64,000 nt of DNA from a virus (taxonomy: Duplodnaviria; Heunggongvirae; Uroviricota; Caudoviricetes), in the IMG/VR virus record IMGVR_UViG_3300032280_000361. One strand, written 5' to 3'. The position numbers were made by a program, and so were the translations under genes. Positions 4,003-64,000 of this stretch are shown here, piece by piece (the stretch's first letter is position 1; each line of letters opens with the position of its first letter). Under the pieces are notes generated by a model. It was not told where the DNA came from, ran no database searches, and saw only the letters and a list, made by a program, of their open reading frames with translations.

Positions 4003-5217
4003 TTATTTTTCCCATATCCAAATTGGTTCTCCAAATGCTTGATTTTTAGCCTCTTCTACCTTATCCCTTAGTTCCTCTGAGAAATAATCCGATATGGCCC
4101 TCCCAGCTCCTCCGCTGTTGTGTCTTTTTGTCATTTCCATACCAATACACCCTTTATAAATTAACCCCTTAGAATGGAGGAAATCGTTCATAGAATTGGT
4201 TATATCTACATACCCCTTATCGGGAGCCGAAAATACATCCGCTATATTGATTGCCAGTATTCCACCCTTTTTAAGAGTAGGTATTACCTTTTCTAGGGTA
4301 TTTTGGAGAAATCCTTTGTTCCAATCATCAAACTTCTTATAACGTATCCAACTTTGGGTTTCATCGAAGCTATACCTCTCTGTGTTGAAATATGGAGGAG
4401 AAGTAAAGATAGTATCAAAGAAGTTTTCGTATTTGGAGTAATCTACATCTTCGGCTGCCATATCTAACATCTCAACTTCCTTATCACTCTCAAAGAAAGT
4501 CTTATGTTTGTTATAGAATTCAATCTGTTTTTGGTAGTTAAGATGGTTATTACTATTTGGGTCAATACCTAAATAAAATTTAGTAGTTTCACCCGCAAAG
4601 AATCCACACATCCTATCACCCCAACCTGCCGAAAAATCTAATACGTTTTCACTTTTAAACTTATCGTAAAATGCCTTTGCAATGACGGGTTTAAATTGAG
4701 ATGCTACATACTTTCGTAACGTAGTGGCAGTTCTAAGGGTTTCTTCTGTTACATCTAATAACATTTTATCCAAAGTAAAATATGCTCTTACAATCGTTTT
4801 AATACCATCTACCGTTTGCCATGTTTTCCAACCCGAAGGAGTTCGAACCCAATCCACCTTCCAACGATTTTCAATATGGAAAGGATTGGAGGCATTGTTA
4901 CCTACATTAGTACGTTTAAAATAGTAGTTACTACCATCATAAGTTAATGGGTAGGTAGATTGCCTTTCGTTACGAGGAAACCATTTACCCTCAACTAAGA
5001 TATCAGGCCACCAGGTACCTTTTAATTTCTTATAAGCATCAATTGTATCCTCTTCTGTAATTCTAGGTATCGGTGGTGGATACGAATGTAACACTTCGGA
5101 GAGTTCATCTACAATCTCTTCTTTTGTATATGTGTTTATGATATGTTTCCATTCATCTTTCTCTATTCGAAGATAGGGAGTCATTCCATAAAACTTTTTA
5201 AAATATTCTTTTATCAT
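4003..5217 (-). CDS. SAM-dependent methyltransferase, (S)PPY amino-MTase family (paralog of 12287-13867)
   Basis: motif I DFSAGWGDR ~75 aa before motif IV FTSPPYF; shared ERYSFDETQSW block with the 12287-13867 ORF. Confidence 0.55.
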   Translation of the reverse strand: MIKEYFKKFYGMTPYLRIEKDEWKHIINTYTKEEIVDELSEVLHSYPPPIPRITEEDTIDAYKKLKGTWWPDILVEGKWFPRNERQSTYPLTYDGSNYYFKRTNVGNNASNPFHIENRWKVDWVRTPSGWKTWQTVDGIKTIVRAYFTLDKMLLDVTEETLRTATTLRKYVASQFKPVIAKAFYDKFKSENVLDFSAGWGDRMCGFFAGETTKFYLGIDPNSNNHLNYQKQIEFYNKHKTFFESDKEVEMLDMAAEDVDYSKYENFFDTIFTSPPYFNTERYSFDETQSWIRYKKFDDWNKGFLQNTLEKVIPTLKKGGILAINIADVFSAPDKGYVDITNSMNDFLHSKGLIYKGCIGMEMTKRHNSGGAGRAISDYFSEELRDKVEEAKNQAFGEPIWIWEK

Positions 5218-5255: not shown

Positions 5256-6944
5256 TTAAGCAATTGCCTCAGCATATTCTTCAACTTTAGATTTTCTAAT
5301 GTTGATACGTTCAATATCATCATCTGATAAACCTCTAATTTTCAATACAGCTAAAAACTCATCATGCGAAAAAGATGATTTCTCTCCATTACATTTCGTA
5401 CAGCATGCTGCTCCATTATGAATTGTAGTTTGACCTCCTTTTGAATGAGATACCGAACTATGGTCTCCCGCGATAGTATCATTGATACCATCAATATGAT
5501 TACCACAATATTCAAAGTACATACATTCAAAATCCTGAACTGATGCCATTATATCTTTTTCACTAAGATTGTAAACTCTTTTATCATCCTTCTTTTCTGA
5601 AAGAGTAAATCCAACTTCATTACCTTTTTCGGTAAATTGATTTATAAACTCTTCTGCAACCATTCCTCTCCATTCTCTAAATTCAGAAGGTTGGCCAGTT
5701 GCAATAGAAGAAACAGATTTTGCGAATGAAGTTGGATGACCGGATGAGTTTTTCCACATCCATTTTTTAATTGTAGGAGATTTTTTATCATCGCTTTTAA
5801 ATGCCTTAGCCATTTTTCTATATGTATCCAAAAATTGTTTGGAATTTGTAACTTTAAATTCATACGTTTGTTCTAATTCAAATTTAGTATGAAGTAACAT
5901 AAATAATTCATTAGGAGTTAAAGAACCCTTAACGGATGAATCTCCCATTAATAAATCATCTATCCATTTTAAAATAGGTAACACCTTTGATTTATAAGTT
6001 TCTAATTGTGTTTTTTGTCTCTTTACAACTCCCTTAGCATTATCAATTTCAATATCTCTTTCCATTTCATACATCTTAAGAAGAGCCTTATCGGATAGAG
6101 CTTCGGAATAATTTGATTTAATTAAGTAAAAAACTTTAGCCACAAACGCATCGAAACCTCTGTATATATAAGGTATTTTGTGATGTTTGGAATACCAATA
6201 TTTTTTTGTATCGGTATGTAAGTTTTTAATTTGAAAAACTTTAAGAGAATCTTTTGATTCGGTATTCGATTTTTCTCTGATAAACGCATTTAACATAGAA
6301 ATAATAGATGTTCTAAATTCCTGCGGATACATCTTATTACCATCATTCAATTTTTTAAATTGTCCCGCACATACTTCATCTTCTAAATTATCACCTTCCA
6401 TAAAGAATAATTTGTAATTAGTCTTCCAATATTCTGCGTAGTCTGGATAAGTATCTTGCAAAGATTTCCAATTGTGATTACTCAAATCTAATAATCTACC
6501 ATTAAAATTAAAATATGTATTTTTTGGTAAACGAATACAATTAGTAAACCATGCATTAATTGTTCTAGTTCGTTGTCCACCATCAATGATAGCACGCATA
6601 AGGGATGTTATATTTACCCAAATAAAAGGAAGTGCTTCAAATTTAATAATAGTTGCCATTAAATTTCTCTGCCATTTATCACCATTACCATCCTTCTCAT
6701 CGAAGAATCTATAAAGGCGTTGATACCAAACTTCTGCAGAGTAAATACCTAATGCATAATCAGTCCAATACTTAAAAATTGAAACTTGATTAGGTATCCA
6801 ATTGATAGAAACAATTTTTGAATCTTTTGGTGACGAGAGTGATTCAATGATTTCTCCCGTTTGCAAGTTCTTCATATCAGAACTCTGCAAAACTTTATTT
6901 GTTTTCATTAATTCAAATATACAACATATTTTCGGAACGACCAA
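5256..6944 (-). CDS. GmrSD-like DUF262 (ParB/NTP-pyrophosphatase-like) + C-terminal HNH nuclease protein
   Basis: DUF262 signature IIDGGQRTRTI near N-terminus; C-terminal HNH-type GDHSSVSHSKGG..HNGAACCTKCN. Confidence 0.6.
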   Translation of the reverse strand: MVVPKICCIFELMKTNKVLQSSDMKNLQTGEIIESLSSPKDSKIVSINWIPNQVSIFKYWTDYALGIYSAEVWYQRLYRFFDEKDGNGDKWQRNLMATIIKFEALPFIWVNITSLMRAIIDGGQRTRTINAWFTNCIRLPKNTYFNFNGRLLDLSNHNWKSLQDTYPDYAEYWKTNYKLFFMEGDNLEDEVCAGQFKKLNDGNKMYPQEFRTSIISMLNAFIREKSNTESKDSLKVFQIKNLHTDTKKYWYSKHHKIPYIYRGFDAFVAKVFYLIKSNYSEALSDKALLKMYEMERDIEIDNAKGVVKRQKTQLETYKSKVLPILKWIDDLLMGDSSVKGSLTPNELFMLLHTKFELEQTYEFKVTNSKQFLDTYRKMAKAFKSDDKKSPTIKKWMWKNSSGHPTSFAKSVSSIATGQPSEFREWRGMVAEEFINQFTEKGNEVGFTLSEKKDDKRVYNLSEKDIMASVQDFECMYFEYCGNHIDGINDTIAGDHSSVSHSKGGQTTIHNGAACCTKCNGEKSSFSHDEFLAVLKIRGLSDDDIERINIRKSKVEEYAEAIA

Positions 6945-6956
6945 AAAAATGTTTAA

Positions 6957-7280: not shown

Positions 7281-7823
7281 TTATTCTAATACAATTTTCT
7301 TTAATATAAATAACTTAGAGTTATAATTACTAGCTTTGATAATCATAGTATCTCCTTTCATATTATAAATAGGTGCAATCATAGTGTTTATCTCTCCATT
7401 AGTTCCACTATAAGAGGACGAATTTATTGTTGGTACTAATTCATCTTTGGAGGCAATTAAAGCCGGCAATCGAACGATTTGGTACTGACCTGTGAAGTAA
7501 TTGATATAACTCTTTGTGATTGTAGCAATGGTATCATTTCTTCTTAGTAACCAATATAAATTACTTTCCCATTCTATCTTTTCAGAAGGATAAGGTTCTT
7601 TGCCATTTACCAATATCCTTCCATTTACTCTATGTACGGTTTGGTTTTTAGTTCTATCTAACTTAAGATGATAATAACCATTGACATCTTTAGGAAGTGA
7701 ACCTATCCCATTTTGATTTACTACACCATTTATTTCCAACGTATATGTTTTCGTTGGTATAGGCATATCTATATCCTTTGTACATCCGAATAAAAATAAT
7801 ATCGGTATTAACTTTTTTATCAT
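7281..7823 (-). CDS. putative lipoprotein
   Basis: N-terminal signal peptide with lipobox (LFLFGC). Confidence 0.5.
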   Translation of the reverse strand: MIKKLIPILFLFGCTKDIDMPIPTKTYTLEINGVVNQNGIGSLPKDVNGYYHLKLDRTKNQTVHRVNGRILVNGKEPYPSEKIEWESNLYWLLRRNDTIATITKSYINYFTGQYQIVRLPALIASKDELVPTINSSSYSGTNGEINTMIAPIYNMKGDTMIIKASNYNSKLFILKKIVLE

Positions 7824-9520: not shown

Positions 9521-9556
9521 AACTCAAATATACGAAAAAAAGTTGGAATTACCAAA

Positions 9557-10269: not shown

Positions 10270-11232
10270 ATGAAAAAAACCTTTACTATAGATTTCGGCA
10301 AATTCGATGAGAATAGATTAGTTTCCGAATATTCATTAGATTTTGAAGTACAAGAAAATCCCATTGCGGAATTGTGGTATGATATGTTAAATGGTTTACT
10401 GAGAGATGAAACCTGGAAGTTAGAAACCCGTTGGGGAGCATTTAAACTACCAACTCGTCATCCTAAGATATTAGTAGATAAGTTAAAACGATGTGTTGAA
10501 ACAATTAACAACTCCGATTGGTTTGAATATCATATTATAGAATCTGATATGATTACAGAAGATTACCCAATGGAGGTTCATAATATAATCCACCATCATT
10601 TCGAAACCCTAATCGGACAAGTGTGGAGACCATCCGAATATTGGAATAGAATATGTGAAAGACAAGATTGGGCTCTTATAAATGCAGTTAGAGGATTAAA
10701 TGACCTATCACATGAAATCGAAGAGTGGAATATGAAGGGAGATGCTACAATTTATACCACCTTTATGAATGGGGTCTCTCCGATACAAAAAGTAGAACTA
10801 CCAAAAGAAGCGGATGATTGGTTTACATTAGATGGTGCGTTTGGCAGAGGATATCTTCACTACGCACAATTAGGAAAGACGTGGCAAGAAGTGTGTATTG
10901 ATGATGATGACCAAATAGAACCAGGTAATATTTCCGAACACCGATTACTTAGTGGAGAATTTGATTTACAATTCTCTTTATTCGATAGAACTCACGAAGG
11001 AATGATTGAGACATTTGGTATGAGAGATAAACTCGCTAAATTTGAAAAAACACCTGAAGATAAAAGTTTGAGATTAGGATATTGTCCTGTATTTGATGTA
11101 AAGGGACAAGATAAGTTTAGTACATTAGATAAAGAAAATATAATTGATGGGATTAGAAACCATCCACAAATTATACGAATGAAATTTAGTGATGTGGGTA
11201 GAGCATTTACTCCATACTACGACCCATACTAA
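10270..11232 (+). CDS. hypothetical protein (only large plus-strand gene in first 54 kb)
   Basis: 320-aa ORF in a gap between minus-strand genes, divergent AT-rich promoter region 10214-10269. Confidence 0.5.
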   Translation: MKKTFTIDFGKFDENRLVSEYSLDFEVQENPIAELWYDMLNGLLRDETWKLETRWGAFKLPTRHPKILVDKLKRCVETINNSDWFEYHIIESDMITEDYPMEVHNIIHHHFETLIGQVWRPSEYWNRICERQDWALINAVRGLNDLSHEIEEWNMKGDATIYTTFMNGVSPIQKVELPKEADDWFTLDGAFGRGYLHYAQLGKTWQEVCIDDDDQIEPGNISEHRLLSGEFDLQFSLFDRTHEGMIETFGMRDKLAKFEKTPEDKSLRLGYCPVFDVKGQDKFSTLDKENIIDGIRNHPQIIRMKFSDVGRAFTPYYDPY

Positions 11233-11896
11233 TTAACTTCTCTGCTAAAACTTTATTACCTTCCTCCGATAGATGTAAATCTTCTTTTGAGTAAGTTAAA
11301 TCGTTTTTCTTAGCCCAATTGAGACAAGATAGTTCATTTCCAAATCGGATAAAATTAATCTTATTGAACATAGGAGTTGATTTATACCAACTGTCAAAGT
11401 ATATGAATATAATTTTAGAACCTATCTTCTCAACACTACTCTGAATGTTATACAACGAATACAATAGTTTATTATATTCATAATCATCGTTATATAAATA
11501 TTTTTGATAATCTCTAAATAATTCTAACTTCTTTTCATAGAATTCAATTGATTCTCCATTACCATCTCCAAACATTGCCTGAAAATTAGAAACAATCTCA
11601 TCACCTTTATTGGGGTTAACCATATTTTGTAAAGATATTAAGCTTCTAAATTTAGAATCATAATAAGAATACCTAGTTAAGAATGTAGGCTGAAATAAAA
11701 TCAAAGAATCCTTTAATTCGTATTGGTGATATCGTTTATTGAATTCATTTATGATAGCCTCATTGGAATTTCCAGGTATAGAATGATTCTGATACTGAAC
11801 TCCATAATCATTAGCAACTAAATCAACAAATCCTTTGGTAAAATCCTGTCTCCAACAAGAGAAAGAACAACCAAAGGATATAATGCTATTTATCAT
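11207..11896 (-). CDS. SGNH/GDSL-like hydrolase family protein (paralog 1 of 4)
   Basis: N-terminal block SFGCSFS resembling GDS(L) motif; related N-termini in 25643-26521, 30637-31497, 57917-58555. Confidence 0.4.
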   Translation of the reverse strand: MINSIISFGCSFSCWRQDFTKGFVDLVANDYGVQYQNHSIPGNSNEAIINEFNKRYHQYELKDSLILFQPTFLTRYSYYDSKFRSLISLQNMVNPNKGDEIVSNFQAMFGDGNGESIEFYEKKLELFRDYQKYLYNDDYEYNKLLYSLYNIQSSVEKIGSKIIFIYFDSWYKSTPMFNKINFIRFGNELSCLNWAKKNDLTYSKEDLHLSEEGNKVLAEKLISMGRSME

Positions 11897-11906
11897 AAAT
11901 TAAATT

Positions 11907-12284
11907 GGTGGAGGTGGAGGGAGTCGAACCCTCGTCCAAATACGGATTTAATAAACCTCATTCACAAGCTTAGTTTGTTTTTCTTAACAAACAAAATATT
12001 CGGTTGGTTCTTCACCATCGGCAACCGATAAACAATAGGTGATTCGATTTCGGGTTCAATCACTTTTCCACCTTGGTACACATTCTATTTTATATCCCAC
12101 GATGTGTGCGGGAGAGATTAGGCTGCTACAGCGTAATCAGCACCAACGAATGCCATTGCATCTTCGAAGGTCATTGTAGATAATTCTACGTCGTTTATTG
12201 TTCGATAGGTATTTAAGGATTTCCATCTAACCCTGCTTGCATCAACGTACTAACTCATCGTACCTGTCAAAACCAGGCACCCCC
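11907..12284 (-). ncRNA. ssrA: tmRNA (ssrA)
   Basis: 5' GGGGGUG pairs 3' CACCUCC-ACCA; T-arm GAGGGUUCGACUCCCUC; internal tag frame ...AFVGADYAVAA-TAA; ~378 nt. Confidence 0.75.
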
Positions 12285-12286
12285 AA

Positions 12287-13867
12287 TTATTTTTTGTAGA
12301 ATATAAATATCGGTTCATATTTGTAGAACTGACCACCTATCTTCATACTATTTTTAACACCACTTAAATCAACTCCCGTCATTGGAGACATCGTCATTCG
12401 GATTTTACCTTGATACTCCATACCTAATTCGGTTAGTATATCAATTGAATCCTGTTCCAATGGATAGAAACTTTTTCCTATCTTAATATCAGCAATGTTC
12501 CATAATATATATCTATCATTTCTTAAATACTCAAATGCGGTTACTAAAGTAGGTCGTAAAAATCCATCTCTCCAACTCTCATAGTTTCCAAATTTCTTAA
12601 ATGATTGTGTTTCATCATCGGAATATCTTTCTCTATCAAAGTAAGGAGGTGAAGTAAAAATAAAATCTAAATTACCTTTATACTTTTGAAATCCTTCTTC
12701 CTCACTAATAATCTCTGAGCCTGTTCTATAAATCTCATATGTGTTTTTATGCCCCCAAAATGGATTACATGCTCCAGGTATTTTAGAGTTAAAGAATTCA
12801 GCTAAGTACTCATATCTACTCTTATCAATTTCAGGAATATAATTTTCTGTATTTGGGTCATTACCTATGTAGTGAATGTTTCTATCATCAACCGATAATG
12901 CACCTAATATTCTACCTCCCCAACCAGAAGATGGGTCATAGATATTAATTTGCTTTTGGTCTTTAATATGGTTTGTATATTTCTGATACAAATACTTTGC
13001 AGTTAGTGGAGGAAAGTTTACAGCTGCTTGTGTACCCATTCCAATTCTAAATGCCGCAGTTGCTTCAGGAAAAATAGTTTGACCTAAAGGATACCACTTT
13101 AATTGAATAGGTTGTTTTTCTAATTCAGTTAATGCATCAATATCTTCTCCCCAATTAGCAGTTTTAAGAGATGAAATATGTTTATACTCAATTACTCCTG
13201 CTTTATATAATTCCTTTACCTCTTCCGCAGTAATTGGTAAAGATTCAATTCTACTATCAGTTTGTGCTAAGCAAAAATCATGCCCTTCCCACACATTTCC
13301 ATTCATCCATTTTTCAATCCACTCTTTACCTGTAGTAAGATGTGAATTATGATGTTCTTTATTATCTTTAGCTAATGTTTTAGAGAAACGATACATAGCA
13401 TCTTGTCGTGTCAATCTTCTCATTTGTTTTGCAAATTCAGGAAGAAATTCATCGTTACAGAATATATCGTATATAGAGGGTTTTGGTTTATCATAAGAAG
13501 AACCACCAATCCCAGTCTTATACATCGCAGGAAAGAATTGGTTTACCGGAGTAGCAAATTTATTGAAGTTAAAAATAACATCATTTCCATCATCATCCTT
13601 CTCTTCAAATTTATCAACCTTATAGGTTTGTAATTTAGAAAATTGGTCAATAATTTCAGCCTCCGAAGAACCAATACGTGGAGGTGCTCCTGTTTTGTTC
13701 CACTCATCAACTACGGTCTTACGGAACATAGTAACCCACTCTTCGAATTCGGTAAGTGTCATTTTAAGTACATCTTCATATTTTAAGTTAATATGAGGTT
13801 CGTTAAAATAATCACACTTTTCGTAAAAATATTTCTTATCTGACATTATAATTTTATTAGTCTTCAA
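12287..13867 (-). CDS. SAM-dependent methyltransferase, (S)PPY family (paralog of 4003-5217)
   Basis: DPSSGWGGR motif I, FTSPPYFDRERYSDDETQSF motif IV block. Confidence 0.55.
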   Translation of the reverse strand: MKTNKIIMSDKKYFYEKCDYFNEPHINLKYEDVLKMTLTEFEEWVTMFRKTVVDEWNKTGAPPRIGSSEAEIIDQFSKLQTYKVDKFEEKDDDGNDVIFNFNKFATPVNQFFPAMYKTGIGGSSYDKPKPSIYDIFCNDEFLPEFAKQMRRLTRQDAMYRFSKTLAKDNKEHHNSHLTTGKEWIEKWMNGNVWEGHDFCLAQTDSRIESLPITAEEVKELYKAGVIEYKHISSLKTANWGEDIDALTELEKQPIQLKWYPLGQTIFPEATAAFRIGMGTQAAVNFPPLTAKYLYQKYTNHIKDQKQINIYDPSSGWGGRILGALSVDDRNIHYIGNDPNTENYIPEIDKSRYEYLAEFFNSKIPGACNPFWGHKNTYEIYRTGSEIISEEEGFQKYKGNLDFIFTSPPYFDRERYSDDETQSFKKFGNYESWRDGFLRPTLVTAFEYLRNDRYILWNIADIKIGKSFYPLEQDSIDILTELGMEYQGKIRMTMSPMTGVDLSGVKNSMKIGGQFYKYEPIFIFYKK

Positions 13868-13900
13868 AGATACGAAAAATAATCGATATATCCAAATAAA

Positions 13901-27346: not shown

Positions 27347-28198
27347 TTATTCGGTTTCTACAAAGGTATAAAAACTTTTTGAATTTTCCAAATCTGGTTG
27401 TGTTTTACTTTCACCTAATCTTATTTCCTCTTCCAAATCATATCTTTCTAACAATCTCTTTACGATACCACTTCTTACACAATCCTCCTTTGAGAACTCT
27501 ACTTGATATACACCCTCTACCCCCATAAAGCGATTCCATATATCATAGAACCCACTCTTTTGATATGCAGGTACTCCATTTGCTCTAAACTTATCACATT
27601 GAGAAAGGTCTCCGCATATTACCAACTTACTATCATCTGATATACGCGTTACGAGTGTTTTTAGCTGAGCAGGAGAGGCGTTCTGCGACTCATCCATAAA
27701 GATGTATGTATTATTAAAGTTCATCCCTCTAAGGAAGTTTAAAACCTTAAATTCTATCTTACCCGCTTCAATCAAACGGATGGTTTCTTTTTCTCCTATA
27801 ATTTTGTGAAGTATTCCTATTGAGGATTCATTGTGATAAGCTATCTTCTCCATCAAATCACCAGGAAGGTGACCTAACTTATCTTCGTTACCAACATCAA
27901 CCGTTGGGTTTATAATAACCATTTTATATATTCCACTATTCCTTTGGTATAACAACTCTATACCTTTTTGTATTCCGATGAATGTCTTACCTGCCCCTGC
28001 CAATGCATGAGCCATAACTATATTATTTTTTTGTGATTCGATTGCCTTATACAATCTCTTTTGATTTCTTGTTTTAAATTCTATTGGTGTTATTAATTTA
28101 GGTATCCCTCCTACTTTGTTTTCTACAATTTCTCCAATTGTGTTTGTAACTGTTTGCTCTGTAGCACTCTTTGTAATCCTTTTAGATACTTTACCCAT
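27347..28198 (-). CDS. phoH: PhoH-like ATPase
   Basis: AHALAGAGKTFIG Walker A, FMDESQNASP Walker B, VICGDLSQCD. Confidence 0.8.
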   Translation of the reverse strand: MGKVSKRITKSATEQTVTNTIGEIVENKVGGIPKLITPIEFKTRNQKRLYKAIESQKNNIVMAHALAGAGKTFIGIQKGIELLYQRNSGIYKMVIINPTVDVGNEDKLGHLPGDLMEKIAYHNESSIGILHKIIGEKETIRLIEAGKIEFKVLNFLRGMNFNNTYIFMDESQNASPAQLKTLVTRISDDSKLVICGDLSQCDKFRANGVPAYQKSGFYDIWNRFMGVEGVYQVEFSKEDCVRSGIVKRLLERYDLEEEIRLGESKTQPDLENSKSFYTFVETE

Positions 28199-49521: not shown

Positions 49522-49854
49522 TTAGATATCCCATACTTGCCTCCCATAGATACACACTAACTCACCAAATATCCTCATCAATTCCATTTCGGAAAACAAA
49601 ATCTGCAAAGGTTGATGACCTCCATGTGGATTATGAACGGGCTCTAACCTATACCACCGCCCATCTATACTATCCCTATGAGTTTCCTTCCACAACATAA
49701 GAGCAAGAAAATCCTTTGTCTCACCACTCTCCTTCAACTCCATCATAAAGTGGTAACCGTCTTCCCTCTCCGTTACATCATTGATATGGATATGAAACCC
49801 TCCGCTTTGAAGAGCAAACCCAACAAGCTTTTTATAGTTTTGAATCCTTAACAT
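49522..49854 (-). CDS. MLTIKN-family paralog 3
   Basis: MLRIQNYKKLVGF. Confidence 0.5.
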   Translation of the reverse strand: MLRIQNYKKLVGFALQSGGFHIHINDVTEREDGYHFMMELKESGETKDFLALMLWKETHRDSIDGRWYRLEPVHNPHGGHQPLQILFSEMELMRIFGELVCIYGRQVWDI

Positions 49855-50186
49855 TACGCTATACTATCTTTATGGTTTTCCAATGTACTCTCAACTAATT
49901 CGTAAAGTTGAACGGAATGGAGGATATCCTTCGGTTGTAACATATAAGTACACTTCCAACTCGCACCCACTTGAAACACTTCACATTTATAACCGGATGT
50001 GTATCCCCTATTTTGAGAAACGATACTCTCTTCCCTCTCTATTCGGCAAGTTACGGGTTGCCTATCTCCAATACGTTGCTCAAAGACGAATACATAATAA
50101 TCCGCACCTTCGAACGCCTTTGCCAAATCCCATCCCCATATAACGCCGGAAAGGAGGTCTTTATCGTATCGTTTAATTGTTAACAT
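49854..50186 (-). CDS. MLTIKN-family paralog 4
   Basis: MLTIKRYDKDLL. Confidence 0.5.
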   Translation of the reverse strand: MLTIKRYDKDLLSGVIWGWDLAKAFEGADYYVFVFEQRIGDRQPVTCRIEREESIVSQNRGYTSGYKCEVFQVGASWKCTYMLQPKDILHSVQLYELVESTLENHKDSIA

Positions 50187-50550
50187 ATACTTTGTCTAAT
50201 TGGCGGATAAGTGAATAAATGAATACGTTAGGCGAAACAAAATCATTGTAGTGAAAATAAAAAGAGTTCTCCTTCATAGATGGGCCATAGAGATTCATCC
50301 TATAATGGTCGTGTTCGTTATACATAGGTAGAGTATGTAGATAAGTAGAGTATTCAGTTCTCCCATAGTTAAACCCTATACGATACTGAGGTTCTGATAC
50401 ACTATCCTCTAAGTAAGTATCTACCCATAGGAACTCAATAGAAGAAGGGTACTGAGAGGAACGAACACCTAAGTCGTGTATCCCCATTAGTTTATCCTTT
50501 ATATTCTTTATCTGTAGTAACTTACCACTCTGTATATACTTTATACTCAT
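50173..50550 (-). CDS. MLTIKN-family paralog 5 (extended N-terminus)
   Basis: LLQIKNIKDKL at residue 11; C-terminal VYVNN shared with paralog 8. Confidence 0.45.
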   Translation of the reverse strand: MSIKYIQSGKLLQIKNIKDKLMGIHDLGVRSSQYPSSIEFLWVDTYLEDSVSEPQYRIGFNYGRTEYSTYLHTLPMYNEHDHYRMNLYGPSMKENSFYFHYNDFVSPNVFIYSLIRQLDKVYVNN

Positions 50551-50562
50551 AACATTGTTGAT

Positions 50563-50895
50563 TTACCCGCAACTATTTTCTATTACCTTTAACATCTCCC
50601 TTTCTATAAACCACTTATCCTTTATCTCATCCTTAGTAAGATGGCTATGAGAGAATCCACCACCCTCATTAGGAGATTTTAATTGTTGAGATTGTATTCG
50701 GTAGAGTATCGGTTCTTCGCTCCGCCTATCTCTACTTATGGCAACATCGAACATAGGATAGTTCCACCCGCTTATACTCTCAAATCGGAATGTGTACCAA
50801 TCTTCTAACTCCTCCGTATGTTTGCATTGATATAACTTCCCCTTAATAGAGAAAACAAAATCAATCCAAATGTTATGGTTCTTAATCGTTATCAT
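50563..50895 (-). CDS. MLTIKN-family paralog 6
   Basis: MITIKNHNIWIDF. Confidence 0.5.
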   Translation of the reverse strand: MITIKNHNIWIDFVFSIKGKLYQCKHTEELEDWYTFRFESISGWNYPMFDVAISRDRRSEEPILYRIQSQQLKSPNEGGGFSHSHLTKDEIKDKWFIEREMLKVIENSCG

Positions 50896-51200
50896 TTATA
50901 TGGCTTATATTGATTCATTACCCTAATACTCTTATCTAACCACTCCCAATGTAATTCTAATACGGAACGATTCACCACTCCACTCCAAAGAGGTTGTGTA
51001 CCTGGTGTAGTAGTGAACATCATCATCGGTAACTCCCCTTTAGCGTTCTCAAACCTCCTTCCTAAAAAGATTTGGTATTGGTGGCCAGTTCTACCCGTCC
51101 AAAGAAAAACATAACTATCATTCGTCTCCGTTACGGAATTCAACCTCCATGCTAAGAAAACCTTACCCTCCCCTAATGTATAGTTCTTAATTGTTAACAT
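50892..51200 (-). CDS. MLTIKN-family paralog 7
   Basis: MLTIKNYTLGEG. Confidence 0.5.
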   Translation of the reverse strand: MLTIKNYTLGEGKVFLAWRLNSVTETNDSYVFLWTGRTGHQYQIFLGRRFENAKGELPMMMFTTTPGTQPLWSGVVNRSVLELHWEWLDKSIRVMNQYKPYK

Positions 51201-51510
51201 ATATCATTTTGTGTTTACATACTATCGCTACCAATTCATTCCAATTAGGTATATCCTTTGTATCAATGTATGTATGGTAACCGCTCGTTGTCCATAATCT
51301 ATAACCTAATACCTCACTACCTATACGTTTTTTCTTCCTATCTAAAATGACCAACTGCATCTTTTGTGTATCATATCTACCCGCTTCCATTGGTATAAAC
51401 ATAAATCGGTATTCTATATTGGTTGCATACGCTCCGTACAATATCCATTCATCTCCACCAAAATTAAAATTTGCATTATTTAGATTCTTTATGTTCTTTA
51501 TTGTTAGCAT
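51187..51510 (-). CDS. MLTIKN-family paralog 8
   Basis: MLTIKNIKNLNN; ends MIYVNN. Confidence 0.5.
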   Translation of the reverse strand: MLTIKNIKNLNNANFNFGGDEWILYGAYATNIEYRFMFIPMEAGRYDTQKMQLVILDRKKKRIGSEVLGYRLWTTSGYHTYIDTKDIPNWNELVAIVCKHKMIYVNN

Positions 51511-52525: not shown

Positions 52526-52849
52526 TTATCGTTTATCTTCGAAGTATCTTTTAATTACTGAGTATAATTGGTATCGGAACTCTTCAGCTCCTCTCTTTAA
52601 GTTACTATAACTGAGGTTATGTTGTACATATACTCCATCTACCTTTATCTGTAGTGAACCATTTTGATTAGGTTCTTTGATTAAGTGAACCTTTATAACC
52701 TCACTCCAACCTCCAATCACATATTCGAATTCGTAAGCCCCTTCCCAATTGATGGATGTTACACAATGTCCCAATACCTGTCCATTGGATTTAACTATAT
52801 CTCCCTTAATCTTATCGTGTCCGTCTATGTTAATTAGTTTCATGCTCAA
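52526..52849 (-). CDS. hypothetical protein
   Basis: 107 aa. Confidence 0.4.
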   Translation of the reverse strand: MSMKLINIDGHDKIKGDIVKSNGQVLGHCVTSINWEGAYEFEYVIGGWSEVIKVHLIKEPNQNGSLQIKVDGVYVQHNLSYSNLKRGAEEFRYQLYSVIKRYFEDKR

Positions 52850-53078
52850 AGATACAAAATTAGCCCCATATAACCAAATTTTTTTTAGTGAAATTTTACC
52901 CTTTGGGTATTAATATATATTTTTTCTCACGAGGGTAAAAACTAATCAAAATATGCTAGTGTACCCCTGCCCCCCTTTTAAAAAAAAAGTTATTCACATC
53001 TCCATAGAACCTAAGCCCTATGGATGTGGATAACTCGCCTATAGTGTGTGGCTACCCTATGGTGTTACATATTGTTAC

Positions 53079-53962: not shown

Positions 53963-54162
53963 ATTATGAAGGTTTATTTACGATTTCAGTACGAGGTAGG
54001 GGTTCGATTTCAATAGGGGATACCCTCATTCTACACTCGTGACCGGTGTACATAAGGAAGGTAATAAGGGAAACCAATTGTATCTTTCTCAATCTCATAT
54101 AGTAAAGGTAGGGCTTTCAGCTCATATATCCAAGCATTTCCCCAACTATTTTTAAACTATTT

Positions 54163-54429
54163 TTAGTGTTCAATCATCGAAAGCGGAACGTTATAAGAAC
54201 CGAATCCACCTACTATACCCAATGTGGCCTTAGTTCGGTTTATCTTATTTACTACTAACTCCTTACCAGCCAACTTAGGGTGGTTTACTTTAACTACCAT
54301 ACCTACTGATAGAGCCCTCTTCATATAGGAAGCCTCAGTAGCTCTTTTAAACTTAATCATATTAACTACAGCATCGTTTAGGGAACGTAGTTCTGAAATG
54401 GAAAGGGAGGATAATTGTGAAATGTTCAT
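54163..54429 (-). CDS. hypothetical small protein
   Basis: 88 aa, downstream of type-1 cassette. Confidence 0.4.
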   Translation of the reverse strand: MNISQLSSLSISELRSLNDAVVNMIKFKRATEASYMKRALSVGMVVKVNHPKLAGKELVVNKINRTKATLGIVGGFGSYNVPLSMIEH

Positions 54430-54735
54430 AGTGTATCTCTTTTAGTACATAGTAAAGGTACGGTGTAGACCTCATATATCCAAGCATTTACTGAATTATT
54501 TTCTGTTTCCGACAAAATAATCTGTCTGAGTATCAACGACTTATAACTTATTGATTGTCAGAGGGTTACGACCGGCTGTTACTCTCTCTATTCCCGCCCT
54601 ACCACCCTATAAAGGTACGACTTTCCGTCCACAAATCCAAGGGATGTGGATAAATAAAGTTAAAAAAAAAGATGGGAAAAGACTTTGTCATATGGTAGAA
54701 AGTCGTATCTTTACTATATAACAAAACAACAAACA
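54430..54735. promoter_or_regulatory. divergent promoter region (type-1 cassette for minus genes; inverted CGTATCTTTACTATATAACAAAA element for plus genes) containing a DnaA box
   Basis: cassette copy 54430-54560; TGTGGATAA at 54645-54653; plus-strand GTCGTATCTTTACTATATAACAAAACAACAAACA-ATG. Confidence 0.5.
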
Positions 54736-54909
54736 ATGAAATCAGTTAATGAAACCAAATCGAATCTAGACTACTTAAAGGGGTTAAACGGAGAGGAGTT
54801 CTTCTTTAGAGGGCAACATCCTGATAAGAGAACCGATATGGAGTGGGTTAAGTATATGAATACGAAGTACCCTCACCTTAAGTGGACCGGCAAAGATGAT
54901 AAAAAATAA
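54736..54909 (+). CDS. hypothetical small protein (start refined from track ORF 54685)
   Basis: MKSVNETKSNLDYLKG...; ATG 54736 lies 18 nt after the promoter-like element. Confidence 0.4.
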   Translation: MKSVNETKSNLDYLKGLNGEEFFFRGQHPDKRTDMEWVKYMNTKYPHLKWTGKDDKK

Positions 54910-54970
54910 TCATCAAATTGCTTGGATATACGGTATCTATACTGTACCTTTAATATATAAACGATAAACT

Positions 54971-55216
54971 ATGAATAGAAGTGATAGTAAGTTAATAGAA
55001 CTAAACGATGTGATAGGTGTGGAAGTATCAGAAAACTTCTCTCCTACCCTCAGAGCTAAACTTATCCATATAGATGAGTATCACGGAACGTGTCTTATGG
55101 AGGTAGTACCCTCTCCCTATGTATCTATGATGCAAGGTGGTTCACTAAACAATGATAGAGTTGGTGAAAGGTATCACGCTCCTATCTATCGTATCCACAA
55201 CGCTTATTTCTTTTAA
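54971..55216 (+). CDS. hypothetical protein
   Basis: 81 aa; start context ATAAACGATAAACTATG. Confidence 0.4.
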   Translation: MNRSDSKLIELNDVIGVEVSENFSPTLRAKLIHIDEYHGTCLMEVVPSPYVSMMQGGSLNNDRVGERYHAPIYRIHNAYFF

Positions 55217-55226
55217 AAAACAAAAA

Positions 55227-55457
55227 ATGAAAAAATACAGAAACTACAAAGTAGAACCTGCCCCTACACCTACCTATACAGAGATGGTCTCAGTTACCCT
55301 TAAGAATGGAGGAGTTAAAAAATTCGTAACACCTCAGAAAGCTGAGTTGTGGATAGAAGAACAAATAGCCCTCAGAGCAATCAATGGTGGTGCTAAAGAG
55401 GCTAAGGCACAATTAATGGATATGGGTTTGGTCCCATTTGAATTTAAAACTGCATAG
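55227..55457 (+). CDS. hypothetical protein (start refined to Met26 of track ORF 55152)
   Basis: MKKYRNYKVEPAP...; begins 10 nt after previous stop. Confidence 0.4.
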   Translation: MKKYRNYKVEPAPTPTYTEMVSVTLKNGGVKKFVTPQKAELWIEEQIALRAINGGAKEAKAQLMDMGLVPFEFKTA

Positions 55458-55460
55458 AGT

Positions 55461-55799
55461 ATGGACGGAAACAAAAAAGAATTTATAGAGTTATCCGAAG
55501 AGGAACTATTCCAACTGCCAGAGAATGAGTTTATGGAGTACTTAGACCGTAAGGCAGCATATCTAAAAGGATTCACTCGCCCATTAGGTACATACCACAC
55601 AAAACAATTTATGGCTCAGACAGTAGGTGGTGAGTTATCCACAGAACAATTAAAGAAAGCAAAAGAGATTGGAGCAGTAGGGGATGAAGCATGGACAGAA
55701 GGAATCCGTAAGGCGGCAGAGAAGATGGGAGGAGACCCTAAGTTATCAGACCCTGGCATTAAGAACATCAAAACCAATAGGAAACAATGGTTTGATTAA
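55461..55799 (+). CDS. hypothetical protein
   Basis: 112 aa. Confidence 0.4.
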   Translation: MDGNKKEFIELSEEELFQLPENEFMEYLDRKAAYLKGFTRPLGTYHTKQFMAQTVGGELSTEQLKKAKEIGAVGDEAWTEGIRKAAEKMGGDPKLSDPGIKNIKTNRKQWFD

Positions 55800-56660
55800 A
55801 AAAATAAAAAATAATTTATTAAAAGCTTGTTTATATGGGGTATTCTTCGTATCTTTATAACGGTGCCCTGTAGTTTCCTCTCCCTATACTATACAGAATA
55901 AGAACCCGCCCTCCACAACCCTAAAGTTACAAAATAATTCCCATAAAGTCAAGCATTGTGGATAACTTTTTCCTTTCCCTATATAGTACAATTCTGTCTT
56001 CGTTTCCTCTTTTCTATTTAACATAAGGCGCATTATATAACAGATGGTTTGTATTTCTCCTATACCCCATTGTACTCCTACGACATTGTTTAGGGTTGTC
56101 TAAAAAGTTTAGGTCTATCTAAATCACATATGTAAACCCTTATACAATTGTAAACAGAATTTTATTCCTCTCAGCCCGACGGGTCGCAGTATATTTTCCT
56201 CTCTATACCCCATTATGTAGAATAAAATTCTGTGTCTAAGGCTTTGTCATATGGATTTTTATTCGTACCTTTGTACACTCCTAACACGTAAAAAAAATTT
56301 GGTCGTTAGACATATACATCTATATCCACTTTTCCCCACTTCCTCCCACTTTTCACCTTCGTTATAGAGATAAGAAATAACTACTTAAGTGTATAATTCA
56401 GAATATTACACGCTTTACTCGCTTTGACACTCCACTTTTAGATATGGTGTAAATACTATCGATTCCATCTCCATCCCTTACTCTTACCCCTTAATAGAAG
56501 GTAGATAGACCCTAAAGTGAATACTCCTAAAAATAGTGGTACATTGTGTAATACCATAGCGAGTGTACATAACGATATCACCACTATAAAACTTAATCCT
56601 TGCTCCATATCCGTTGTTTGTTTTAACCTCCGTATATATATCGATTTAGGTTAAAAAAAG
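55800..56660. repeat. ORF-free convergent intergenic region with degenerate direct repeats and a DnaA box
   Basis: copies of TTTCCTCTC(C)CTATA(CCCC)ATTGTAC at ~55874, 55975, 56052, 56192; TGTGGATAA at 55957-55965; CCACTT x3 at ~56330. Confidence 0.45.
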
Positions 56661-62192: not shown

Positions 62193-62554
62193 ATTAATTC
62201 TTTTACGTTTACTAATATACCCAATGAGGTATTGTTATCTCCACCCTTAACTCCCATTCTGGCCTTACCACTTCTAACTAATTCTTTTAGCTTCCGCTTA
62301 AGTTCCTCTTTCGCTATGATAATTGCTCTATGTTCGCTTACCTTATACACCCAATAATCTGCTTCCGATGTTCGGATGCCTGATTTCTTACCTCTACTCT
62401 CATACTCAATATAGACATTACCTGTCTGTTCGGTTAATCTATCTGTTTTAACCTCAACCTTAGAATTAGTAACTATATTGTGAAACCAGCTTTCGCCTTC
62501 CACAACACCAAACTCTAAATCATATCTGAAATCTGAATTGAATTCCATATACAA
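62189..62554 (-). CDS. hypothetical protein
   Basis: 121 aa, 4-nt overlap with uvdE start. Confidence 0.4.
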   Translation of the reverse strand: MYMEFNSDFRYDLEFGVVEGESWFHNIVTNSKVEVKTDRLTEQTGNVYIEYESRGKKSGIRTSEADYWVYKVSEHRAIIIAKEELKRKLKELVRSGKARMGVKGGDNNTSLGILVNVKELI

Positions 62555-62580
62555 ATATACGAAAATATACCCACATTTCC

Positions 62581-62613
62581 AAATAAAAAACCCTCAATTT
62601 TTAGGTTGAGGGT
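62581..62613 (-). terminator. rho-independent terminator after groEL
   Basis: minus-strand CCCUCAA-CCUAAAAAU-UGAGGG + UUUUUUAUUU. Confidence 0.6.
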
Positions 62614-62622
62614 CTTAATTTA

Positions 62623-64000
62623 TTACATTCCAAATCCACCTCCAGGAGGCATCATTGGTGTTTCTTTCTCTTCTTTCTTCACACCGATAACACATTCAGT
62701 TGTTAACAATAGGGAAGCAATACTTGCTGCATTCTCTAAAGCCAAACGAGTTACCTTTGTAGGGTCAATGATACCAGCTGCTACTAAATCCTCAAACTTC
62801 TCAGTTCTCGCATTATAACCATAGTTGCCTACACTACCTTTAACCTCATTGATTACTACTTCAGCAGAACCTCCACCATTTTGAACAATAGTTCTTAAAG
62901 GTGCTTCTAATGCTTTCTTAATAATCTGAACACCGGTGATATAATCAGTATCTTGTCCAACTAAGTTAATTTTAGTTGAATCTTCTAATGCAGTTAGTGC
63001 TCTGATTAAAGCAACTCCACCACCAGGAACAATACCTTCAGCTACCGCTGCTCTTGTTGCGTGTAATGCATCATCTACTCTATCTTTCTTTTCTTTCATC
63101 TCAACCTCTGTAGTTGCACCGATGTATAAGATAGCTACACCTCCACTTAATTTAGCTAATCTTTCCTGCAACTTCTCTCTATCATAATCAGATGTTGCCT
63201 TTTCGATTTGAGATTTAATTAAAGAAATTCTATTCTTAATTTCATCAGCATCTCCACCACCATTTATGATTGTAGTTGTATCCTTATCAATTGTAAGCTT
63301 TTCAGCAGTTCCTAACATATCGATAGTTGCCTTCTCTAATGTATAACCTTTCTCTTCTGAAATTACAGTACCACCTGTTAAGATTGCAATGTCTTCCAAC
63401 ATTTCTTTTCTTCTATCACCAAATGCAGGTGCTTTAACAGCTGCAACTTTCAATGAACCTCTTAACTTATTAACTACTAATGCAGCTAATGCTTCTCCAT
63501 CAACATCTTCAGCAATAATCACTAATGGTTTGTTAGTTTGTGCTGATGATTCTAATAATGGTAGGATTTCTTTTAATGTAGAAATCTTCTTATCATATAA
63601 TAAGATGTATGGTTTCTCCATTTCCGCTTCCATTGATTCTTGATTAGTTACAAAGAATGGAGATGAATAACCCTTATCAAATTGCATACCTTCTACAGTC
63701 TTTACTTCTGTTTCTGTACCCTTTGCTTCTTCAACGGTGATAACACCATCTTTACCAACCTTCTCCATAGCAGTTGCAATCATCGCACCAATCTCAGTAT
63801 CGTTGTTTGCAGATACAGTTGCTACTTGCTCAATCTCTTTTGAAGTTTGAATCTTCTTTGAGATATTAGATAATTCCGCTACTACAACACTAACCGCTTT
63901 GTCGATACCTCTCTTTAAATCCATAGGATTCGCTCCTGCTACTACGTTTTTGTAACCTAATGCGAAAATCTCTTGTGCCAATACGGTTGCAGTTGTTGTA
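62623..64000 (-). CDS. groEL: chaperonin GroEL (N-terminus truncated by window edge)
   Basis: [11 protein letters not shown] at window edge; Ile/Val-rich apical and equatorial blocks; C-terminus [11 protein letters not shown]. Confidence 0.95.

Follow-up and report, generated by a model that had tools for sequence, protein, structure and literature searches.

Transfer-messenger RNA (tmRNA) genes are already known from phages: they occur in 402 of 18,146 phage genomes (PMC9004378), are carried by relatives of mycobacteriophage Bxz1 and by Bacillus phage G (PMC4131195), and are found in huge phages (PMC7162821). A gene of this kind, a complete one-piece tmRNA (ssrA), lies in the viral stretch IMGVR_UViG_3300032280_000361, all 64,000 nucleotides of which were analyzed and are referred to as the window. 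The presence of such a gene is ordinary for a jumbo phage. What is apparently new is its tag, which in sequence comparisons belongs to a widespread and seemingly virus-only family that is conserved at the peptide level and ends like a host tag. The phage tmRNAs reported previously are likewise complete, belong to large lytic-looking phages, often lie near tRNA genes and have tags unlike those of the canonical host. Among deposited Bacteroidota phages, Cellulophaga phage Calle_1 (L215) has an annotated tmRNA with a 22-residue non-host tag (AQIEANMEAVNAILNLEVAVGV), and circularly permuted tmRNAs with non-host tags are present in Chryseobacterium phage MA9V-3 (L214; GNVIDINKYVAKLEVAA) and the crAss-like phage cr50_1 (L213; GNNFVTDYTAIGA). 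By contrast with the permuted forms of cr50_1, MA9V-3, Melnitz and Mosig, the window tmRNA is one-piece, and, unlike the reported phage tmRNAs, it is fitted between two protein genes with spacers of only 2 and 9 nt. Among phage tmRNA tags, the long-tag family to which it belongs is unusually widespread and conserved.

With one-piece bacterial SsrA, as in Bacteroides (native tag GETNYALAA; bioRxiv 10.1101/2025.03.18.644028) and E. coli (ANDENYALAA), the window tmRNA shares the G3:U70 pair, A73, the CCA end, the T arm, pseudoknots 1 and 2 (PK1 and PK2), U and A at positions -5 and -4, a resume codon beginning with G, and a tag whose last four residues follow the pattern A-(aliphatic)-A-A. The last 8–9 residues of the phage tag (GADYAVAA; GADEYALAA in some relatives) resemble those of Bacteroides, which stands here in place of the host's own tag, whereas the preceding 15–16 acidic and aromatic residues have no counterpart in the Bacteroides or E. 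coli tags. Unlike bacterial ssrA, the window gene is part of a phage operon rather than a neighbor of chromosomal smpB, and it specifies a 24-residue tag; its sequence 3' of PK2 aligns poorly with the Rfam model.

Two further systems offer partial parallels. The long tmRNA tags of Mycoplasma and Mesoplasma are, as Gur and Sauer reportedly found in 2008, recognized by Lon instead of ClpXP. These tags likewise comprise about 25 residues, with determinants upstream of the C-terminus that matter, and provide a precedent for co-evolution of tag and protease; they are, however, chromosomal and occur in bacteria without ClpXP, whereas the window tag is viral and keeps a ClpX-type A-x-A-A end. In mycobacteriophage DS6A, a tmRNA consisting of the tRNA-like domain only has been proposed to titrate SmpB (PMC4131195). 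Like the window gene, this element is phage-borne and tmRNA-derived and could interact with SmpB, but it holds little beyond the tRNA-like domain, whereas the window gene is complete and has a tag frame that appears to be under selection.

A complete tmRNA gene

ARAGORN recognized a single tmRNA in the 64-kb window, with the tag DVELSTMTFEDAMAFVGADYAVAA*. Rfam family RF00023, the sole Rfam family above threshold in the window, matches at the same coordinates along its entire model (positions 1–374 of 374; 101.2 bits against a gathering score of 47; E = 2.2e-38). The minus-strand gene runs from 5' GGGGGUG to 3' CACCUCC-A-CCA, with the CCA encoded (Table 1). Both programs find the standard, non-permuted gene order, which rules out a two-piece (circularly permuted) tmRNA. 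With its covariance match, tRNA-like domain, alanine identity, PK1 and tag frame, the element has the defining sequence features of a tmRNA. A first-pass annotation, made from the letters alone, had described a complete tmRNA with acceptor, T-arm and terminal CCA, and the full-length match, the paired helices and the encoded CCA bear this out; of the boundaries given there, the end at 12284 stands, whereas the start at 11907 is 1 nt off that found by ARAGORN and Rfam, and the strand had been left unstated. We hold with considerable confidence that this is a functional tmRNA gene of a large (>200 kb) uncultured phage, the host of which is probably a member of the Bacteroidota.

Conservation of the RNA structure

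Structural conservation was assessed in 46 sequences, namely the window tmRNA and the 45 representatives to which 55 unique family tmRNAs had been reduced. Anchors served to locate the helices; column-based pair counts on a full-length MAFFT alignment, in which the 5' ends were mis-registered, were dropped. In the acceptor stem and T arm not one of 552 cells is a non-pair, and G3:U70 and the discriminator A73, the identity set for alanyl-tRNA synthetase (AlaRS), are invariant in all 46 representatives. Among the 25 distinct sequences of these two helices, 100% of cells are paired (80.8% in shuffles), seven of the 12 pairs show two-sided changes, and covariation reaches 0.504, compared with 0.104 in shuffles and 0.04–0.10 when the partner strand is slid. 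An H-type pseudoknot can be formed at PK1 in 46 of 46 representatives, in about 20 different covarying versions of its stems. In PK2, compensatory variants occur within the window-like subset in both stem 1 (UCUCGC/GUGAGA and CCUCGU/AUGAGG) and stem 2 (UCACU/AGUGA and CUCAU/AUGAG), and the best knot measures 11.0 bp versus 8.1 bp in shuffles. These patterns argue for a structure maintained by compensatory evolution and hence for an RNA that has been kept functional. The covariance-model scan proposed in the first-pass annotation matches over the full length and aligns the S2 helix of PK1; PK2 gains support from covariation in the window-like subset, and the region of the remaining pseudoknots is placed with low posterior probability, as discussed below.

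The family consensus immediately before the tag is AAUAAAY, followed by a first codon that is always G-initial (G-NN; GAC, GCA, GCU or GGC). In E. coli, where UAGUC precedes the resume codon GCA, A86 at position -4 is essential for the choice of frame (PMC2481249), and the U and A at -5 and -4 of the window tmRNA agree with this rule.

The tag peptide

Although the RNA diverges fast elsewhere, its tag is conserved better than any other part: 68% of the tag columns were invariant in a first alignment of 12 sequences, against 30% elsewhere, and between sub-clades the tags are 77–100% identical compared with 48–64% for the remaining RNA. A first wider sampling had picked loci by the tag motif and, being circular, was repeated tag-blind, using a signature of the 3' tRNA-like domain. 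This viral scan yielded at least 82 phage tmRNAs, mostly with short tags of the ANDN...ALAA type, and at least about 16 more tmRNAs with the long tag, among which there is genuine variation, for example DEMSTMTFEDLMSFVGADYALAA, ANVELSTMTFEDAMAWMNSFDYAVAA and DEKSTFTFEDAMSFVGADYAVSA. That the conservation is an artefact of tag-based selection can therefore be rejected, the tag being conserved in the tag-blind sample as well, although in the tag-selected set the core DAMAFVGAD still looks more invariant than it is, owing to ascertainment.

Of 25 family members sampled tag-blind, 22 could be compared for selection on the tag, as gauged from the proportions of non-synonymous and synonymous differences (pN and pS). 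They give a pN/pS of 0.33, with a pS of 0.36; the variable sites are distributed over the three codon positions as 9/7/18; and stops interrupt one alternative frame in 21, and the other in 18, of the 22 sequences. On these three observations, the frame is under purifying selection and appears to be translated and maintained for its peptide. The amino-acid exchanges are conservative (T/S, M/W/F, V/I, A/S and V/L/I), and the length variants, of 23–26 codons, stay in frame. Codon usage in the tag is very uniform. Analyzed as an amphipathic helix, the tag showed no clear signal, its net charge being -5 and its hydrophobic moment modest.

The ending GADYAVAA-TAA reported in the first-pass annotation is correct but forms only the tail of a frame of 24 codons. 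The claim that AVAA, in place of the canonical ALAA, makes for an unusual C-terminus could not be upheld: V, L and I interchange at this position among close relatives (AVAA/ALAA/AIAA), and the Caulobacter ssrA tag AANDNFAEEFAVAA, which has been used as a destabilizing tag, also ends in AVAA (PMC1233412). On comparison of the tags, then, it is the conserved 15–16 residues ahead of the degron-like end that seem distinctive, not the AVAA ending, and the tag looks two-part, with a host-like degron end preceded by a conserved acidic and aromatic module.

Distribution of the tag family

The back-translated core DAMAFVGAD was found in 60 viral contigs, in which it often lies beside arrays of 15–26 tRNA genes on contigs of 180–289 kb. 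With their tmRNAs so often adjoining tRNA arrays, the relatives carry the gene in genomic positions quite different from that in the window. A relaxed pattern applied to metagenome contigs listed at least 120 loci, of which 116 belong to the long-tag family and four are chance coding matches; the long-tag loci have a median of 34% G+C, and smpB is near none of them among the matches listed. In one genome per species from 185,579 bacterial and archaeal species, the exact motif DAMAFVGAD occurs in no tmRNA, its four matches all being chance hits in coding genes of genomes with 68–71% G+C. DNA searches of 50,697 deposited phages with the locus and the tmRNA gave no near match, the distant matches being confined to the ~50-nt 3' end and directed to other tmRNAs; tblastn of the tag peptide against deposited phages gave no match either, a 24-residue query having little power. 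Within the limits of the exact-motif search, the long tag is apparently confined to viral sequence.

A literature search for the tag strings and for YAVAA endings found nothing relevant, and phage tmRNA tags are hardly discussed in the searchable literature. Other recurrent tag families appeared among the tag-blind phage tmRNAs (L100–L208), namely ANNNxHFEQRLAA, ANDNVEFDYALAA, GNTNFWSLVN...EELLAA and GDYQPTYAYAA, and the same viral scan returned very short AEYAVAA tags on contigs of ~31% G+C. Taken together, the tags of phage tmRNAs seem to be diverse and to have received little study.

Catalogues of phage tmRNAs go back years, and the tag family provides an experimental handle on what these RNAs do for the phage. 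It recurs in more than 100 low-G+C viral and metagenome contigs, with hundreds of aquatic viral contigs apparently carrying it, and the tag motif is a specific marker for this group of uncultured jumbo phages.

Promoter signals and the probable host

The motif TTTG-N17-21-TAnnTTTG occurs 15 times in the window, compared with 2.8 copies expected, and none of 100 shuffles reached 15; most of them lie shortly before the start of an open reading frame (ORF; Table 1), on its coding strand. In flavobacteria, TAnnTTTG serves as the -7 box for sigma-A (PMC9723704). Of 51 distinct upstream regions in relatives, 11 have the motif at a fixed distance of 13 or 19–20 nt ahead of the tmRNA, versus 0.1 expected. 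Only four of the 72 gene starts have a Shine-Dalgarno core, fewer than expected at random, and the leaders are rich in A; members of the Bacteroidota are stated to lack Shine-Dalgarno sequences (PMC6847099). The enrichment of the promoter motif and the scarcity of Shine-Dalgarno cores suggest that the host is probably a member of the Bacteroidota. A tblastn search for cultured relatives with two large orphan proteins of the window (646 and 541 residues) gave no match.

A sigma-70 promoter scan around the tmRNA showed no enrichment and no terminator, with one weak site at 12327–12300. In many relatives of unrelated genomic context, the sequence GTTCTTTAA(C/A)ATAT stands directly 5' of the mature tmRNA end, 14–16 nt before it (for example in L037, L041, L043, L046–L048, L055, L057, L064, L072, L083, L142, L167 and L170); it is absent from the window and could be a processing leader or a phage-specific promoter element.

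Proposed mechanism

A Bacteroidota-type promoter motif upstream of the methylase-like gene that precedes the tmRNA is the likely promoter of that gene, the tmRNA and the following 229-residue ORF as one unit (Table 1). As neither a further promoter motif nor a terminator-like site was found on the minus strand between this motif and the tmRNA, the polycistronic transcript would include the tmRNA. Cleavage of its 5' end by host RNase P, together with 3' trimming, would release the tmRNA and at the same time part the methylase-like and 229-residue cistrons. The RNA would then be charged by host AlaRS and bound and delivered by host SmpB, given that neither tblastn nor the Pfam survey found smpB in the window or in the loci of this tmRNA family. 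It would enter stalled ribosomes during infection, free them and append alanine plus the 24 tag residues to their products, which the C-terminal GADYA(V/L/I)AA most likely directs to host proteases of the ClpXP type. Such a role fits a theme of sustaining translation and protein quality control in infection, to which the GroEL, the Hsp20 and a deformylase match of the window would also belong.

More tentatively, and with appreciable doubt, the N-terminal 15–16 residues may be a virus-specific recognition module, read by a phage or host adaptor or protease, that re-routes the products of stalled ribosomes differently from a GETNYALAA-like host tag. By binding the module, such a factor would decide what becomes of tagged proteins or how fast they are degraded. 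If so, faster recycling, protection from host degradation or the sensing of translational stress are possible outcomes, and the family, more than a borrowed host gene, would consist of viral tmRNAs whose two-part tag is new in function; if the extra module is neutral, the gene is merely one more phage tmRNA.

Genomic context

The tmRNA and both flanking ORFs are on the minus strand, in line with the operon orientation described in the first-pass annotation. The stop codon of the upstream ORF lies 2 nt before the tmRNA, as stated there, but its designation as a methyltransferase is weakly supported: Pfam gave no match to this ORF, PHROG 498 ('DNA methyltransferase') matches residues 398–486 (E = 1e-9), PHROG 12517 also matches, and tblastn aligns its C-terminal half with annotated phage DNA methylases at ~30% identity. 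The spacer on the other side, given as 10 nt, is in fact 9 nt from the CCA to the start of the 229-residue ORF, for which neither Pfam nor PHROG returned a family. An independent gene caller leaves the same gap of ~390 nt at the tmRNA (L209).

The upstream protein is encoded at 74–99% identity in 28 IMG/VR viral contigs, one of them 251 kb long. In about 18 of these, with the upstream protein at least 91% identical, the tmRNA directly follows the methylase-like gene and the following order is kept: arginine-deiminase-like gene (which adjoins the methylase-like gene in the window too), methylase-like gene, tmRNA, 229-residue ORF, 320-residue ORF (+) and oxygenase. The 229-residue ORF is syntenic in close relatives and absent in L009, and its protein is recorded on a contig of the 0.2–1 Mb size class. 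This synteny and the phage-type gene content make the flanks phage DNA; host-chromosome flanks, which the first-pass annotation had named as the sign of an integration site, were not observed.

The window has 27–37% G+C, with nearly all of its ORFs on the minus strand. Among the 84 ORFs surveyed are genes for GroEL, Hsp20, PhoH, UvdE, a dTDP-sugar epimerase and methylase-like proteins, together with many orphan proteins or proteins matched by PHROGs only. There is also auxiliary chemistry that is unusual for a phage (9557–10213, 20023–21267 and others), comprising four 2-oxoglutarate (2OG)-Fe(II) oxygenases, a tryptophan halogenase (E = 9e-87), an adenosine phosphosulfate (APS) kinase with a sulfotransferase, an SPFH/Band 7 protein and the arginine-deiminase-like protein mentioned above.

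Alternative explanations

Phages and islands often integrate at the 3' end of ssrA (PMC9004378), and 3'-end matches of ~33 nt to the window tmRNA are present in temperate-looking phages such as those of Moorella and Streptococcus; the gene might thus be host DNA left at the attB/attP site of a temperate phage and without function for the phage. However, att remnants are 3' fragments, whereas this gene is full length, with a tag of its own that was not found in cellular genomes and conserved phage genes on both sides. The Pfam survey returned no integrase family among the 84 ORFs at E < 3e-5, and the compensatory evolution and purifying selection described above speak for a maintained function. 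This explanation is already largely refuted, and we attach scarcely any credence to it; the first-pass annotation's preference for a phage-carried ssrA over an attB remnant is thereby strengthened. It is also highly improbable that the window is cellular DNA of a low-G+C bacterium, or an integrated element, with the cell's own ssrA. A GroEL ~60% identical to bacterial GroEL, PhoH and sugar-nucleotide enzymes, all common in cells, would be compatible with such an origin, but the 84 ORFs include no ribosomal, smpB or other housekeeping family among the Pfam matches listed (E to 3e-5), most have no family or a PHROG only, and nearly all lie on one strand. Moreover, the relatives are viral contigs, some with 15–26 tRNA genes beside the same tmRNA, and the tag motif is missing from the tmRNAs of the cellular genomes searched.

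A less easily dismissed, if still unlikely, explanation accepts the gene as phage-borne but takes it to serve ribosome rescue only, or to act as a decoy competing for SmpB, with a tag that has no specific role and is conserved through constraint on the RNA and recombinational spread. In E. coli phage assays, ribosome release was critical for phage growth and the tag sequence was not (PMC2481249), and the SmpB titration proposed for DS6A is a model for a decoy. The uniform codon usage of the tag, its low pS and the occurrence of identical tags on backbones of 64% identity are in keeping with a rescue-only role. Against it stand the concentration of changes at third positions and the low pN/pS in tag-blind samples, the conservative nature of the replacements and the frame-keeping lengths; a decoy, in turn, would need neither an intact resume context nor an open frame.

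A functional phage tmRNA with a selected two-part tag remains the reading we prefer, although a number of points weigh against it. The pS within the tag is lower than the divergence of the remaining RNA, and tmRNA mosaics occur among 41 unique aligned sequences: L074 combines a window-like 5' domain with an AEELSSF-type tag, and L008 and L028 have identical tag frames but only 64% identity elsewhere. The mosaics suggest recombination between phage tmRNAs and, together with the low pS, indicate that RNA-level constraint or recombinational spread of a tag cassette may add to the conservation. In the Rfam alignment, the region of pseudoknots 3 and 4 (PK3 and PK4) is placed with low posterior probabilities and is not alignable across the family; inspection by eye alone suggested a knot (UCACC/GGUGA with CGGUUG/CAACCG) as well as a hairpin at the end. 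The host phylum is derived solely from the promoter and Shine-Dalgarno signatures, and a host tag differing from DAMAFVGAD by one residue would have escaped the cellular search. The window covers 64 kb of a genome of >200 kb, which may hold a phage smpB, protease or adaptor elsewhere. Finally, the least supported step of the mechanism is the one in which we purely infer that the N-terminal ELS-x-x-TFEDAM-A-F-V module probably binds a further factor, be it an adaptor or a second protease, of the host or the phage.

Other features of the locus and window

Table 1 Features of the tmRNA locus and promoter-motif copies in the window
Feature	Coordinates	Strand	Remarks
tmRNA (ssrA), complete, one-piece	11906–12284	-	379 nt, encoded 3' CCA; ARAGORN and Rfam RF00023
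Acceptor stem, 5' strand GGGGGUG	12278–12284	-	RNA 1–7; pairs with 11910–11916; holds G3 of G3:U70
PK1	12204–12234	-	RNA 51–81; S1 AGGGUU/AAUCCU, S2 GAUGG/CUAUC; Rfam aligns the S2 helix
Frame-setting element UAAAC	12193–12197	-	Abuts resume codon; U at -5, A at -4
Tag frame	12118–12192	-	Resume codon GAC, 24 codons (DVELSTMTFEDAMAFVGADYAVAA), stop TAA 12118–12120
PK2	12078–12113	-	RNA 172–207; S1 UCCCGC/GUGGGA, S2 ACACAU/AUGUGU
T arm GAGGG-UUCGACU-CCCUC, acceptor 3' strand CACCUCC, discriminator A and CCA	11906–11933	-	Covariation
Upstream ORF, weakly DNA-methylase-like	12287–13867	-	526 aa from TTG (519 aa in the independent gene call, L209); stop TAA
Downstream ORF	11207–11896	-	229 aa; start ATG
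Promoter motif TTTG-N20-TATCTTTG	13865–13896	-	Bacteroidota-type
Further promoter-motif copies, from among the 15	1157–1188, 6914–6945, 9525–9556, 27361–27392, 52847–52878, 62552–62583	-	Motif scan

Clean loss of the tmRNA in relatives with an upstream protein of 82% identity or less was considered and rejected: these share the methylase-like gene alone, in a different neighborhood. Exact-protein look-ups of the 526- and 342-residue ORFs gave no record, probably owing to differing start-codon calls. In three close relatives, L002, L003 and L004 (~7594–7800), an inserted 68-residue ORF (MNEKLILMLKTSAEADKAK...) separates the methylase-like gene from the tmRNA, which begins 8 nt past the stop of this ORF. 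The window contains a second, paralogous methylase-like gene at 4003–5217(-) that, like the one at 12287–13867(-), matches PHROGs 12517 and 498, and in more distant relatives (L018–L025) two or three methylase-like paralogues lie close together.

The minus-strand layout is broken by two short plus-strand islands (10270–11232 and ~54000–56000), at which GC skew switches sign; the former abuts the downstream ORF and overlaps its 3' end by 26 nt. The phage GroEL gene at 62623–63981(-), which matches PHROG 5725 from profile position 97, is truncated at the edge of the window; it joins Hsp20 and a weak match to peptide deformylase in a set of protein-quality-control genes alongside the tmRNA. Six consecutive ORFs of similar size (102–125 residues) in a tight tandem run at 49522–51510(-) may be an array of paralogous small proteins.

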